Position numbers and translations under genes: made by a program
NCBI GenBank assembly: GCA_965207115.1
Contig: CBDBLR010000003.1
Location: 224,563-288,562, forward strand
DNA length: 64,000 nucleotides
DNA from: Dehalococcoidia bacterium
GTDB lineage: Bacteria; Chloroflexota; Dehalococcoidia; UBA6926
Reading direction: 5' to 3'
Part shown: positions 2,717 to 39,359 of the stretch, piece by piece
Position numbering within the stretch: position 1 is the first letter of the stretch
Layout: every line of letters starts with the position of its first letter
The notes under the pieces: generated by a model
Databases searched by the model: none
What the model was told of the DNA's origin: nothing
The model's input: the letters and a program-made list of their open reading frames with translations, nothing else

Positions 2717-4042
2717 TCAGTCGAAAGCAAGTTGTGGGAACTGGTCGAAATTGTAGGATGAACCCTCATGGACAAGCGCGTCCCACCAGTCGATTCCGAA
2801 CCCGACCTTTTCCTCGAAATTTTCGCAAAGTATCTTTAAGTGCGGGTCACGATCAAACCGCTCATGTTTGTAGACGACCAAGCCGAGTCGCCGAGTAAGG
2901 AGTTCATGCATTTCGTTGAATAGCCTCACATTGGACTGCTTGGGTCGCAACCATACGACCATTTGCCCAGGTAGGCCGGTTCGGACATTACGAGGCATGC
3001 TCGTATGGTCAGTTAGCAGGGCGCTTGCGACGGAGAATCCCCGGGTGAACGCCGCTACGACCGATTCAGCAGAGGCCATTAACCCCTTGGGTAGCCGAAA
3101 ACCGTCGCAGTTCGTTTGTGGGGCAAAGGCTTGTGTAATGACTTCAAATGCTTTTGAGTCATCGGAGAGGTCAATAGTGACGGCCTGTTCGGACACTTCA
3201 ACCGTTGAATCGGGTAGCGCCCGCCGTGCCTGAATCGCTATCTCATCCGGGATAGTGCGTAACGCAGTTGCCGCTTCAAATGATTGATTCCTTACCGTGA
3301 TGCGACCTTCGTTGTAGCTGGCAGCCCGGAAGAGAAGACGAATTCTGATTGATGATTCCGTCAGATTCAGTTCTCCTCTAGCCGCAATTGCGCCCATCAG
3401 ATACGCCGCCTCAAGTGAGGGCCACGCAAATGGCTTCCTTGCAGCCGACTGCAAGTGCTCGGTCAGAGTTCGTAGTGCTCCACGTGACCGTCTTTCACCA
3501 CGCAACCAAGATGTCCTCAGGCGACCACAGTAGAGCTCATAGAGACGCGCGGCTTCGTGGTCGATATAGGATGCTTGTGGGTTGTTCCACAGGGACTCAA
3601 ATGCTTCATGTAGCATCCTGTTCTCCTGTGAATCAGACGGGCAATCAAGGACGATGCCATACTCCACGTTGCGGTTGAGAGCGGCGCCGGTCAGGTTCCC
3701 AGAACCGACTATCGAACTAGCTCCGGTGTCCATCTCTGTGAGATAGAGCTTGGCGTGGAAATTCCCACCATCGTCTTTCGGAAGCAGAGTCTTGAGTGTC
3801 ATCGTCTCATGGGCTTCCTGCAATGCGACCAGCGACCACACTGCGGACGGATCGGTGTTGCCGCTCTGAAGGTCAATGAGGAAGCGGATCTGGCGACCGT
3901 CGCGCAGTAAAGTCTCGATTTGCGGCATGACTATATCAAGCCCCTCTTTGGAGACGTAGGCAACGGCAATACTCACGTCGCTGTCTGACGACAATAGTGC
4001 TGGAATGTCTGCCCCATAGTCAGCGGAGCGAATCATCGTCAT
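2717..4042 (-). CDS. PLD/HKD-superfamily nuclease-like protein with an unrelated C-terminal domain; candidate restriction endonuclease, 441 aa
   Basis: Single HKD motif HAKLYLTEMDTGASSIVGSGNLT (H96, K98). The start ATG overlaps the methyltransferase stop (ATGA at 4039-4042). Local GC is lower than the flanks. Confidence 0.7.
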   Translation of the reverse strand: MTMIRSADYGADIPALLSSDSDVSIAVAYVSKEGLDIVMPQIETLLRDGRQIRFLIDLQSGNTDPSAVWSLVALQEAHETMTLKTLLPKDDGGNFHAKLYLTEMDTGASSIVGSGNLTGAALNRNVEYGIVLDCPSDSQENRMLHEAFESLWNNPQASYIDHEAARLYELYCGRLRTSWLRGERRSRGALRTLTEHLQSAARKPFAWPSLEAAYLMGAIAARGELNLTESSIRIRLLFRAASYNEGRITVRNQSFEAATALRTIPDEIAIQARRALPDSTVEVSEQAVTIDLSDDSKAFEVITQAFAPQTNCDGFRLPKGLMASAESVVAAFTRGFSVASALLTDHTSMPRNVRTGLPGQMVVWLRPKQSNVRLFNEMHELLTRRLGLVVYKHERFDRDPHLKILCENFEEKVGFGIDWWDALVHEGSSYNFDQFPQLAFD

Positions 4043-4899
4043 TTTGGCTTCTGGAAGATGTTTATGTACTCGTGAACCTTGTTGATGCGAAAGACGGACG
4101 GGTGACCCAAGGGGCGAAGATTGTTGTACTCGCTGCTGCGATCCCAGATGATGATGTCATCGAGGACAAACCCAACCTTTTCCATGTATTGGGCTAGGTC
4201 TGCATGGAACGGATAGAATCGATCCTTTTTGCGCAAGTCCATGACAATTACGCAACAATAGGCTCCAGGCTTTATGGCGAGATAAACCTTGCTGAAAACT
4301 TCTGTCAACTCTTCAAGGAAGGCGTGGTAGTCTTCAATCGTGCCTAGATCTCCTTCAGCATTCCCATAATGGCGAACGTCTTTGTAGTCCGCAGTGCGAT
4401 CTCTTTGGAGTATGTCCCAGTAAGGCGGGGACGTTATCACAAGGTCTACTGTTTCCGGCTCCACGAATTCCAGGAGGTTTCGCGCGTCCGCGACATGCAG
4501 TTGTCTCTCGCCAAGCTCCGCCGCGGTATTTAGAAGCGGTTGAGGCCGCGTGTGCGCTTTCGTAATGTAATCAACCGACAGGTCAAGCCCGATGCCGATC
4601 TTGCCCGCCGCCTCTGCGGCAATGACCGTCGAACCGACACCGACAAATGGGTCAAGGACTATCCGTTGGTCATTCGTCGTGAGACTCTCAATGAGCCGTG
4701 TTACCAGTTGACCCGGGAACATGGCGGGGTGCTTTAGGTTTTGTTCCTCGCTCGTCTTGCGGATGTCATTCCACACGCTGATGGAGTTGCGCAGCCACGC
4801 TGCGCCGTCAAGATCGTTCGCCCTCTTGCGTGGGGACCTCGGCTTGGATGGAGGTTTTTCCTCTCCGGGCAACAATCGTTGCTGTGCTTCTGTGGCCAA
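4039..4899 (-). CDS. N6-adenine/N4-cytosine DNA methyltransferase (PF01555-like), 286 aa, TTG start
   Basis: KHPAMFPGQL...VLDPFVGVGSTVIAAE (motifs X and I) followed by VDLVITSPPYWD (motif IV). Translationally coupled to the downstream PLD gene. Confidence 0.85.
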   Translation of the reverse strand: MATEAQQRLLPGEEKPPSKPRSPRKRANDLDGAAWLRNSISVWNDIRKTSEEQNLKHPAMFPGQLVTRLIESLTTNDQRIVLDPFVGVGSTVIAAEAAGKIGIGLDLSVDYITKAHTRPQPLLNTAAELGERQLHVADARNLLEFVEPETVDLVITSPPYWDILQRDRTADYKDVRHYGNAEGDLGTIEDYHAFLEELTEVFSKVYLAIKPGAYCCVIVMDLRKKDRFYPFHADLAQYMEKVGFVLDDIIIWDRSSEYNNLRPLGHPSVFRINKVHEYINIFQKPK

Positions 4900-4972: not shown

Positions 4973-7351
4973 CTAGGTTAACGCTCCTACGTCCTGTAGT
5001 TTCTGCACTTCGTCGTCTGAGAGGCCGAGGATTCCGCGGAGGACGTAGTCATTGTGCTGGCCGAGGGCGGCGGAGGGCATCCGCGAGCCGCCGGGCGTTT
5101 CTGACAGGCGGACGGTGACGCCCGGCTGCTGCAAGACACCCCAATCCGGGTGATCCAGCGTTTGGATGTAGCCGCGCTCACGCAGGTGCGGGTCCCAGTA
5201 CAGCCCCTCGCCGTCGAGGACGGCGGTGGCAGCGACGCCTGAGCGTTGGAGCAGGTGCATGACTTGGCGTGGCGTCTGCGTTCGCGTCCACTCGGACAGT
5301 TCGGCGTTCAGCGCGTCCTCGTTGGCTTTACGTCCCTCTTGCGTCGCATAGTCTGGAGTCTGCGTCCATGCAGGAGCGCCAATGGCCTGAACGAGCGCTT
5401 CCCATTCCTGGTCCGTCCTGCAGGCGATGGCGCACCATTCATCGCTGCCCTTGGCGGGATAGATGCCGTGCGGGGCGTGGACGGGGTGGCGGTTGCCAAC
5501 GGGCTCGCCGGGACGGCCGTTGACCTTGTAGTCCATGAAGGGCATGGCCATGGTGTTGCCGACGGCCTCCACCTGCGCCATCTCTACGTACTGGCCGCGT
5601 CCCGTCTCTGCCTTGTGATAGATGGCGGCAAGAGCGGCGAGCGCGGTAAGGCTGGCGATGAGAAAGTCAGGGTAGTCGAACTTGCAGCGGGCGTTCGGTT
5701 CCGACTCCGGGTGTCCCCATGTGTAGCTGAGGCCGGAGACGGAGACGAGGCTGAATCCGAAGGCGACGTGATCCTTAAGCGGCCCGATGCTGCCCCACCC
5801 GGGCATGCTGACCTGGATGATCTCCGGGTTGACCTTACGCAGTTCCTCGTAGCCGAGATCGAAGCGGTCGATGACGCCGAGCGCGAAGTTGTCTATGACG
5901 AGGTCAGAGACGGCGGCGATGCGCATGGCGACTTCCCGCGCCTCATCGTGATGCAGGTCAAGCGTGATGCCGTGCTTGTTGCGGTTGAGATCGGCAACGA
6001 ATGGCATCGTGCCCATGCGGTTGTTGGTGTCGAACAGGGACGACTCAACCTTGATAACTTCCGCGCCGTAGTCGGCAAGCTGACGCGTGCAGTACGGCCC
6101 CGCCCAGATTCGCGTGAAGTCCAGGACTCGCACGCCCTCAAGCGGTAGCACGGGGGTCGCGCCGTTCTCCGCCGCTCCGGCGGGCGCAGGTTGGCGTTCC
6201 GAGACTTGACCGGCGTGTTCGTTCAACAGAGGGGCGGGTTTGGGCTGGGGGATGGGTGTTTCCGACATACGGAAGGGCGGGCCGGGGAGAGGATATTCAC
6301 CGATATCGGGGTGTTTGACTGTCGTGAAATAGTCACGCTCAGCGAACTGGACATTGTCGGCAAAGTCGCCGGGGCGATTGACGGGCGCGGCTGCGAGGCG
6401 TCGACTCTGTGCCTCTTCCACGAACTCGGCCACCGTAAACTGCTCGATGAACGGCCTGGTGAGGGAATCGATGAACAGCATGTTCTCGCCCTGCCGGTTG
6501 ATAAGCGGATACCAGAACTCGTCCTGCAGGGCGGGCTCGCCCATCCAGTCGAAGAAGACCCTTGCCTGCGGGGCGAGGAGCACGGCAAGGCTCACCCATC
6601 CGTCCTTACACCGGTAGATGTTGTAGGGGGCGAGGTTGCCGGTTGCGCCGATGCGCTCTCCGATCTCCGACGTGGCCGAGTAGCGGATGATCTGGTAGAA
6701 GATGTTGGCCAGCACCTCCTGCATGGAGACTTCCACGTGCTGGCCTCGGCCAGTCTTGCGGCGCGCCATGAGCGCGTAGAAGACTCCGTGCGCGGCGTGG
6801 ATGTTGGCCATGATATATGCCTGGTCGAGGGGAGCGGCTGCGGGGGGCTGCTCGTCGTCGCCCTGGATAGTTGTCAGCCCGCTCATGGCAATGGCATGGA
6901 GGTCTGAAGCCAGGTAATCGCCATAGGGGCCGGACTCGCCGAACGGCGTGACGGAGACGGTGATCAGGCGAGGATTGTCCTCTCTCAAGACGCCATCAGG
7001 CAGCCCGATGGTGGCGAGGTAGCCGGGCTCGAAACTGTCCAGCACGACATCGGCGGACCGCGCCATGTCCAGCAACTGTTGGCGGCCATTGTCCGTTGCA
7101 ATGTCGATGACGACGCTCGACTTATTGGAGTTGTAGGCGAGCCAGCGGAGGCTGCGGTTTAGGCCCGGTTCATCACCGGCGAACGGAGGCAGGAACCGGA
7201 CGGGATCGCCGCCCGGGGGCTCGATTTTGATGACCTCCGCGCCCATGTCTGCCAGCAGGCGACCGGCGTACTGCCCGGCCAACCCGGACAGGTCAAGCAC
7301 GCGGATTCCTGCCAAGACGGACGGAGACGTTCCATTGGCTGTCGTTGTCAT
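4973..7351 (-). CDS. Tandem two-domain family III (CaiB/BaiF-type) CoA-transferase, 792 aa; paralog of 276..2687
   Basis: GIRVLDLSGLAGQYAGRLLADMGAEVIKIE and a second GVRVLDFTRIWAGPYCTRQLADYGAEVIKVE. Shares the SMPGWGS.GP and NRNK motifs with the paralog. Confidence 0.85.
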   Translation of the reverse strand: MTTTANGTSPSVLAGIRVLDLSGLAGQYAGRLLADMGAEVIKIEPPGGDPVRFLPPFAGDEPGLNRSLRWLAYNSNKSSVVIDIATDNGRQQLLDMARSADVVLDSFEPGYLATIGLPDGVLREDNPRLITVSVTPFGESGPYGDYLASDLHAIAMSGLTTIQGDDEQPPAAAPLDQAYIMANIHAAHGVFYALMARRKTGRGQHVEVSMQEVLANIFYQIIRYSATSEIGERIGATGNLAPYNIYRCKDGWVSLAVLLAPQARVFFDWMGEPALQDEFWYPLINRQGENMLFIDSLTRPFIEQFTVAEFVEEAQSRRLAAAPVNRPGDFADNVQFAERDYFTTVKHPDIGEYPLPGPPFRMSETPIPQPKPAPLLNEHAGQVSERQPAPAGAAENGATPVLPLEGVRVLDFTRIWAGPYCTRQLADYGAEVIKVESSLFDTNNRMGTMPFVADLNRNKHGITLDLHHDEAREVAMRIAAVSDLVIDNFALGVIDRFDLGYEELRKVNPEIIQVSMPGWGSIGPLKDHVAFGFSLVSVSGLSYTWGHPESEPNARCKFDYPDFLIASLTALAALAAIYHKAETGRGQYVEMAQVEAVGNTMAMPFMDYKVNGRPGEPVGNRHPVHAPHGIYPAKGSDEWCAIACRTDQEWEALVQAIGAPAWTQTPDYATQEGRKANEDALNAELSEWTRTQTPRQVMHLLQRSGVAATAVLDGEGLYWDPHLRERGYIQTLDHPDWGVLQQPGVTVRLSETPGGSRMPSAALGQHNDYVLRGILGLSDDEVQKLQDVGALT

Positions 7352-18977: not shown

Positions 18978-19051
18978 TGGCTGGGGAACGTGGATTCGAA
19001 CCACGACTAACAGATTCAGAGTCTGTCGTCCTACCGTTAGACGATTCCCCA
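18978..19051 (-). tRNA. tRNA-Gln (anticodon CTG), CCA encoded
   Basis: Manual cloverleaf: acceptor TGGGGAA/TTCCCCA, anticodon stem ACAGA/TCTGT with loop CTCTGAA, T-arm CGTGG-TTCGAAT-CCACG, 74 nt. Confidence 0.95.
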
Positions 19052-39284: not shown

Positions 39285-39359
39285 TGGAGCGGGCGATGGG
39301 GATCGAACCCACGACATTCTGCTTGGGAAGCAGACACTCTACCACTGAGTTACGCCCGC
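39285..39359 (-). tRNA. tRNA-Gly (anticodon CCC), CCA encoded
   Basis: GCGGGCGTAACTCAGTGGTAGAGT..., anticodon stem TCTGC/GCAGA with loop TTCCCAA, T-loop TTCGATC, 75 nt. Confidence 0.95.

Follow-up and report, generated by a model that had tools for sequence, protein, structure and literature searches.

A candidate restriction-modification gene pair in a Dehalococcoidia bacterium whose phospholipase D nuclease carries a predicted, degenerate LAGLIDADG-like domain

Here we describe a two-gene locus in a 64,000-nucleotide stretch of contig CBDBLR010000003.1 from a Dehalococcoidia bacterium (the whole stretch is called the window below). A DNA methyltransferase gene at 4039-4899 and a gene for a phospholipase D (PLD) family protein at 2717-4042, both on the minus strand, probably form a Type II restriction-modification (R-M) cassette resembling that of BfiI, in which a catalytically dead LAGLIDADG domain would steer the PLD nuclease; we give this reading a probability of about 0.6. 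A sequence-only reading of the same DNA had proposed that the span 2717-3430, which corresponds to residues 205-441 and the stop codon of the 441-amino-acid (aa) PLD protein, encodes an inactivated homing-endonuclease fold recruited as a DNA-recognition module. Comparative genomics supports the dead LAGLIDADG-like domain as the most likely DNA reader of the system.

Predicted fold and replaced catalytic acids of the C-terminal domain

Residues 205-441 of the protein, about 237 aa, are predicted to adopt a single-chain double LAGLIDADG fold. AlphaFold2 models were made without templates, from 41 sequences for the full-length protein and from 50 sequences for residues 198-441; the latter model reached a pLDDT of 93.6 and a pTM of 0.91, and the full-length model (pLDDT 86.8) had the same C-terminal topology. 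The first LAGLIDADG-like half (residues 205-312; 3107-3430, minus strand) is predicted to run alpha1, beta1, beta2, extra hairpin, alpha2, beta3, beta4, alpha3, with helix 210-222, strands 223-226 and 231-235, the extra hairpin at 247-256, helix 257-275, strands 280-284 and 287-291, and helix 296-306. For the second half and its C-terminal helices (residues 313-441; 2720-3106, minus strand), the model has helix 326-340, an extended loop or hairpin, strand 361-365 (beta2', MVVWL), helix 372-386 (alpha2', VRLFNEMHELLTRRL), strands 390-393 (beta3', VYKH) and 401-405, and helices 406-412 and 418-434. When the model of residues 198-441 was compared with Protein Data Bank (PDB) structures by Foldseek, LAGLIDADG proteins made up all 50 of the matches listed, 31 of them at E <= 0.001, in alignments of 204-247 columns that covered both halves and with a probability of 1.00 to many LAGLIDADG structures. 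The best E value (1.1e-6) belonged to the TliVMA intein endonuclease (TMq 0.52), I-Tsp061I gave a TMq of 0.57 and a TMt of 0.66, and the other matches included WhiA (8dy9_I, 3hyj, 3hyi), PI-SceI, I-DmoI, I-SceI and the I-OnuI family. LAGLIDADG inteins were also returned by the full-length model, listed behind its PLD matches. Both the order of the secondary-structure elements and the Foldseek matches therefore place the domain in the LAGLIDADG superfamily. The fold suggested by the sequence-only reading is thus borne out by the comparison of an AlphaFold model with known folds that it had recommended, and the segment SIRIR, which it had described as beta-like, coincides with predicted strand beta2.

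Searches with sequences and profiles, also recommended there, turned out differently, as neither Pfam nor PDB sequence searches gave an above-threshold LAGLIDADG match. Pfam gave none at E <= 10 for the whole protein or for its C-terminal half, so the gathering scores of LAGLIDADG_1/2/3, Hom_end and LAGLIDADG_WhiA were not reached by the window protein; a search of PDB sequences with residues ~200-441, by phmmer and with a 10-sequence profile, returned only noise, and NCBIfam gave no meaningful match for the same residues. Among 32 relatives of the C-terminal domain, sub-threshold Pfam matches, in at most 8 of them, were found to LAGLIDADG_3 (n = 5), Hom_end (n = 2) and LAGLIDADG_WhiA (n = 1), the best being LAGLIDADG_3 in relative P0072 (E 3.4e-4, 21.3 bits against a cut-off of 22.5), and these matches, where located, coincide with the two motif helices.

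Both LAGLIDADG motifs are present in degenerate form. Motif 1, AYLMGAIAARGE, occupies residues 213-224 (3371-3406, minus strand) and has R222 (3377-3379) at the catalytic-acid position, and motif 2, AFTRGFSVASAL, occupies residues 331-342 (3017-3052, minus strand) with S340 (3023-3025) at that position; small residues fall in the motif register in both (G217, A221 and G223; G335 and A341). The hhalign alignment of the family profile with I-DmoI, for which the query sequence exactly matches PDB 2vs8, placed AYLMGAIAARGEL opposite AYLLGLIIGDGGL, with D21 over R222, and AFTRGFSVASA opposite AFIKGLYVAEG, with E117 over S340. D21 and E117 are given as the metal-binding residues of I-DmoI in a 2012 review (PMC3384342). 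This register is consistent with the helix predictions and with an hhalign alignment of the first half against the second, which is weak (P 0.021) and serves as a register check only, not as proof of homology. Replacement of the catalytic acids by R and S, as the sequence-only reading had it, is supported by the I-DmoI alignment, and its motif peptides need only small corrections of position. The peptide YLMGAIAARGE is present, one residue further on than claimed (214-224, not 213-223), with SIRIRLLF at 231-238; for the second motif, PKGLMASAESVVAAFTRGFSVASALL was found at 318-343 and QMVVWLRPKQSNVRLFNEMHELLTRRLGLVVYKHE (QMVVWLRPKQ...YKHE) at 360-394, so that the stretch ends at 394 and not at 392.

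The replacements are not peculiar to the window protein. Of 45 relatives, 37 have R and 6 have K at position 222, and the residues found at position 340 are S, C, T, A, L and Q; none of the 45 has D or E at either position. A further 117 stand-alone relatives have K or R at the first acid position and T at the second, with D or E at neither. The absence of D and E from both columns throughout these two sets indicates that canonical LAGLIDADG active sites are lacking family-wide. Active endonucleases have an acid at the end of each LAGLIDADG helix, and with R222 and S340 in these places the domain could bind DNA but would not cut it in the canonical way. The 117 stand-alone relatives also have near-invariant D, H, R, E, E, H and K at window columns 338, 342, 344, 366, 399, 400 and 403, respectively, and these columns are mostly replaced in the PLD-fused clade of the window (V338, L342, T344, R366 and P400). 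This polar set may reflect a function that disappeared once the PLD domain had been fused, possibly that of a non-canonical active site or of contact with DNA or a metal.

Conservation is high in the extended beta1'-beta2' hairpin region, LLTDHTSMPRNVRTGLPGQMVVWLRPKQ (residues 342-369; 2936-3019, minus strand), where mean column conservation is 0.85-0.97 and T344, T347, M349, P350, G359, Q360, M361, V363, W364, L365, R366 and P367 are invariant. R366, K368, R395 and K403 are conserved in the second half. We consider this hairpin a candidate DNA-contact element.

The nuclease domain, its methyltransferase and their locus

The N-terminal half is a PLD-family nuclease domain (residues 1-160; 3563-4042, minus strand), as the sequence-only reading had assigned it: Pfam PLDc_2 matched residues 16-152 (E 4e-9, 36.9 bits against a cut-off of 27), RE_NgoFVII matched more weakly (E 6e-4), and the PLD part of the full-length model matched SauUSI, Nuc, NgoAVII and BfiI in Foldseek. 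It carries the HxK...GSxN signature of the Nuc/BfiI type of the PLD superfamily, with the catalytic motif H96-A-K98 at 3749-3757, the motif G113-S-G-N116 at 3695-3706 (G113, S114 and N116 invariant) and E127 at 3662-3664, which completes the active site, all on the minus strand. In a phmmer search of PDB sequences, residues 95-137 were aligned to BfiI 104-146, placing H96, K98, N116 and E127, all four invariant in 41 homologues, opposite H105, K107, N125 and E136, the active-site residues of BfiI (PMC4267654). With one HxK copy per chain, dimerization would be implied by analogy with BfiI and Nuc (PMC4267654). The NCBIfam matches of the restriction endonuclease (R) protein were to DrmC-like PLD models only and its PADLOC matches were restricted to the PLD domain, which is matched by DrmC, ZacB and SauUSI-type models in these collections. 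The domain is followed by a basic helical linker (residues 161-204; 3431-3562, minus strand) with a computed isoelectric point (pI) of 10.75 and model helices at 162-176 and 181-200.

The methyltransferase (M), of 286 aa from a TTG start, matched Pfam N6_N4_Mtase (E 3.1e-30) in two separate stretches. Motifs X/I (HPAMFP...DPFVGVGST) lie ahead of motif IV (SPPY), and the enzyme is therefore circularly permuted relative to beta-class N6_N4 enzymes; against PDB 2zie, query residues 128-256 correspond to chain residues 18-140 and query residues 11-115 to chain residues 176-273. The SPPY motif and a second-best match to N4-cytosine methyltransferases hint at N4-methylcytosine as the modification.

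The two genes overlap in the ATGA at 4039-4042, where the TGA stop of the methyltransferase overlaps the ATG of the R gene (441 codons and a stop), and translation confirmed the coordinates of all parts in the window. The GC content of the pair (2717-4899) is 0.48-0.57, against 0.62-0.66 in the flanking DNA, and the pair is a compact, low-GC, M-then-R cassette that was acquired horizontally. This operon with a methyltransferase differs from a homing-type setting, since the R protein is encoded neither in an intron or intein nor as a free-standing homing gene at its own target. Relatives were absent from PLSDB plasmids and IMG/VR viral contigs, and nothing therefore points to a phage or plasmid origin.

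The pairing extends to other genomes. We found 49 homologues of the R protein, the near-full-length ones sharing its architecture of a PLD domain followed by the C-terminal domain. Eight related loci were available in metagenome-assembled genomes (MAGs) of Dehalococcoidia and Tepidiformaceae, with R proteins 41-82% identical to that of the window, and in all eight the gene for the same N6_N4 methyltransferase lies directly upstream of the fusion gene. No third gene is conserved in these loci, nor is an ATPase, helicase or DISARM partner. An adjacent cognate methyltransferase without an ATPase subunit is the arrangement of BfiI-type Type IIS systems. Two of the eight loci (L007 and L008) carry decayed copies of the cassette, and decay and interruption by insertion sequence (IS) elements are typical behavior of R-M genes. 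In L007 (6927-8104 and 5119-5984), an IS630-like element carrying two transposase open reading frames interrupts the R gene roughly behind the codon for residue 315, and the methyltransferase gene is frameshifted; in L008, the R gene at 6001-7276 is matched in two overlapping pieces, probably as a result of a frameshift. A single-protein genome scan for diverged PLD fusions yielded one full-length relative, 37% identical, at 6001-7284 of L009; it adjoins an IS5-like transposase fragment and may represent an orphan or a differently partnered system.

In the window, the cassette is flanked on its own strand by two paralogous genes for double-domain CoA-transferases of ~800 aa (276-2687 and 4973-7351, both minus strand), from which it is separated by just 29 and 73 bp. 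The same layout of CoA-transferase genes and cassette is found in the close relatives L001 and L002, so that the cassette sits inside an apparent operon. Two tRNA genes elsewhere in the window, tRNA-Gln(CTG) at 18978-19051 and tRNA-Gly(CCC) at 39285-39359, both on the minus strand, are unrelated to the R-M pair.

The module outside PLD fusions

A profile of the C-terminal domain, run against 1.84 billion representative proteins, gave 43 relatives, and a wider profile search gave 776 matches, one of which has a precomputed PF14528 annotation and another the UniRef name 'LAGLIDADG homing endonuc...'. The module also occurs on its own, as a protein of ~285-318 aa, in numerous bacteria and archaea, DPANN and Asgard MAGs among them. 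Eight stand-alone genes on long contigs were examined (P0096, P0200, P0202, P0176, P0088, P0128, P0196 and P0205; loci L017 and L019-L028), and in eight of eight a methyltransferase immediately precedes the module; these methyltransferases are 45-53% identical to that of the window over the whole length and are orthologous to it. Six of the eight loci have a second methyltransferase, fused or separate. Two methyltransferases fit an asymmetric site, as in Type IIS systems, and a single-chain LAGLIDADG scaffold reads asymmetric sites.

Directly after the stand-alone module, six of the eight loci encode a conserved ~160-aa protein with an invariant D65...E82-x-K84 and no Pfam family (L019 5890-6372, L021 5884-6378, L023 5938-6423, L026 4905-5387, L027 4961-5449 and L028 4959-5441). 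This protein had no match among PDB sequences and only a weak Pfam match to HSDR_N (E 0.046), so its assignment to the PD-(D/E)xK nucleases rests on the invariant D...ExK motif; on that basis it is probably the small nuclease subunit of a split R-M system. The nuclease partner of the module would thus be a PLD domain fused in cis in the window's clade, versus a small PD-(D/E)xK-like candidate acting in trans elsewhere. A methyltransferase and a module that are kept across lineages, with a candidate nuclease that differs, are what one would expect of a specificity module.

Several side observations concern these relatives. Next to the stand-alone gene of Metallumcola ferriviriculae (L017), the region 1-2852 resembles a defense island, with genes for ThsB_TIR, TIR_2, a caspase-like peptidase C14, a further N6_N4 methyltransferase, an IS3-type transposase, HicB and Fic. 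Other architectures of the module occur in P0062, P0065, P0076, P0067, P0072, P0073, P0080, P0084 and P0085; in some of these it lies between an N-terminal region of ~100 aa and a GreA/GreB C-terminal domain, and in others it is C-terminal in proteins of 900-1700 aa, one of them with McrB-N and EVE domains. In the large multi-domain relatives, neither PADLOC nor NCBIfam matched the LAGLIDADG-like part.

DNA recognition, alternatives and known systems

In the mechanism that we propose, the methyltransferase would mark host sites and so block binding of R to host DNA. On the model of BfiI (PMC4267654), the PLD domains of two R subunits would come together and build one HxK/N/E active site, and each C-terminal LAGLIDADG-like domain would bind one copy of the target with its saddle. 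The PLD site would then cut both strands in turn at a distance from the target, without metal and through a covalent phospho-histidine intermediate.

Several observations count against this proposal. No sequence-only method gave a significant LAGLIDADG match to the window protein. The hhalign alignment with I-DmoI is weak (P about 1e-3 global and 0.024 local, probability <10%), and the residue equivalences therefore rest on a weak alignment together with the motif register. The C-terminal domain is not basic, with a pI of 5.6 overall and 4.7 in its first half, which recalls WhiA. No comparable N6_N4 methyltransferase gene lies within 6 kb of the PLD-fused relative in L009. Finally, a single small methyltransferase is an awkward fit to a long asymmetric site.

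The most probable of the alternatives is one that we still regard as rather unlikely. According to this explanation, the LAGLIDADG-like domain is a protein-protein or regulatory scaffold that docks on the methyltransferase, for example, or holds the PLD site closed, and DNA is contacted by the basic linker or the PLD dimer. Since the domain is not basic, a WhiA-like scaffold role may apply; its acidic to neutral character stands against the strongly basic linker 161-204. WhiA itself offers a precedent, as the 2012 review (PMC3384342) gives Arg and Gly in place of its acids and leaves it doubtful whether its LAGLIDADG part binds DNA. The tight and ancient coupling of the module to one methyltransferase family would also fit binding to the methyltransferase. 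However, an R-M nuclease requires a specificity element, and the C-terminal domain is the sole globular non-PLD domain of the R protein, the linker being the only other specificity candidate. Moreover, the module accompanies two unrelated candidate nucleases, and the beta1'-beta2' hairpin and the conserved R366, K368, R395 and K403 occupy places that homing endonucleases use for DNA contact. The first half, besides being acidic, is more variable, and the second half, which contains the hairpin, is much more conserved, so that this half may do most of the binding.

The pair might instead serve something other than classical restriction: the PLD protein could be a Type IV-like methylation-dependent nuclease or an accessory nuclease resembling DrmC, or the pair could act, for example, as an addiction module that plays no part in phage defense. 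This is suggested by the DrmC, ZacB and SauUSI-type matches of the PLD domain and by the L009 relative with its missing methyltransferase neighbor, but we consider it improbable, given that the overlap of M and R, their pairing in eight of eight loci and the joint decay of both genes are typical of Type II R-M systems and that no DISARM or helicase partner is conserved. A still smaller chance is left for a LAGLIDADG-like domain that retains non-canonical catalysis, for instance as a nickase, which would give the protein two nuclease activities. The near-invariant polar columns of the stand-alone relatives would agree with this, as would the two stand-alone loci that lack the ~160-aa partner, yet most of these positions are replaced in the PLD-fused clade, as expected if the function passed to the PLD domain. 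It is just as hard to credit that the fold is a modeling artefact and residues 205-441 form another alpha/beta fold: the missing above-threshold sequence match, a modeling alignment of only 50 fairly close sequences and moderate TM-scores (0.45-0.57) speak for it, but they are outweighed by very high template-free confidence, a full-length model of the same topology, Foldseek matches exclusively to LAGLIDADG proteins among the 50 listed, independent weak Pfam matches exactly on the two motif helices and a weak internal-repeat alignment in the right register.

Among known systems, the closest parallel to the proposed reading of the window pair is BfiI (Type IIS, PDB 2c1l), which the sequence-only reading had already invoked. 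The two share an N-terminal PLD domain with a single HxK and the same four active-site residues, a long linker, a non-catalytic C-terminal domain, an adjoining cognate methyltransferase and the absence of a conserved ATPase partner. They differ in that the C-terminal domain of BfiI is a B3-like beta-barrel, whereas the window protein's is a predicted double LAGLIDADG fold whose model has only LAGLIDADG folds among the matches listed, and in that the window system has one methyltransferase. R.NgoAVII and R.CglI have a similar PLD domain (to which the RE_NgoFVII match and the Foldseek match 4rct point); however, they are ATP-dependent and need a DEAD-family N/H subunit, none of which is conserved beside the window gene, and their C-terminal fold is B3-like, unlike that of the window protein.

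For the C-terminal domain, the comparison is with WhiA/DUF199 (PDB 3hyi, 3hyj and 8dy9), a domesticated single-chain double LAGLIDADG fold without catalytic acids. Arg occupies the first acidic position of WhiA from T. maritima, as stated in the review (PMC3384342), and may be compared with R222. Unlike WhiA, the window protein has an N-terminal PLD nuclease as the partner domain and an R-M operon as its setting; the WhiA-type helix-turn-helix domain is absent from it by Pfam and in the model, where the chain stops one helix beyond the second half, and neither it nor its relatives gave an above-threshold Pfam WhiA match. The monomeric homing endonucleases I-DmoI, I-Tsp061I and I-SceI and the inteins PI-SceI and TliVMA share topology and motif register with the domain, but the window protein lacks the canonical D/E, is paired with a methyltransferase and is not part of an intron or intein.

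The split systems, in which a recognition-type protein is combined with a ~160-aa D...ExK subunit, are reminiscent of BspD6I, BtsI and BsrDI, Type IIS heterodimers whose small nuclease subunit is a protein of its own. The large subunits of these enzymes are PD-(D/E)XK proteins, whereas those of the split systems are LAGLIDADG-like.

The sequence-only reading had called the fusion undescribed. In agreement with this, we found no description of a PLD-LAGLIDADG fusion or of a LAGLIDADG-like R-M recognition module in the roughly 8.3 million full texts searched, REBASE being outside their scope. WhiA/DUF199 is named as the domesticated LAGLIDADG host protein in the 2012 review, where the discussion of R-M systems appears to concern other nuclease families (PMC3384342). 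The pairing of a PLD nuclease with a dead LAGLIDADG domain is thus unreported in that literature. Each part has a known counterpart, the enzyme being of the BfiI type and the LAGLIDADG domain being domesticated in the manner of WhiA.

Restriction enzymes fall into classes built on a few nuclease folds, namely PD-(D/E)XK, HNH, GIY-YIG, PLD and half-pipe. If our reading of the window pair is correct, it would add a second domestication of the LAGLIDADG fold after WhiA/DUF199 and the first inside an R-M system, and evolution would have arrived at the design of engineers, an inactivated meganuclease scaffold that steers a non-specific nuclease. Because long asymmetric sites are what LAGLIDADG scaffolds read, the R enzymes could be natural rare cutters with new specificities. 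The fused and split layouts, with their two nuclease folds, offer a clean system for studying the exchange of specificity and cleavage modules, of interest to research on both restriction enzymes and meganucleases. More tentatively, at slightly less than even odds, we suggest that the window gene is one face of an unrecognized R-M class in bacteria and archaea, whose core would be the permuted N6_N4 methyltransferase and a domesticated LAGLIDADG recognition module, with an interchangeable nuclease and possibly with long or asymmetric sites as targets. If real, such a class would link homing endonucleases directly to R-M systems in evolution, and it would be nature's equivalent of the engineered proteins in which a dead meganuclease is fused to a nuclease.

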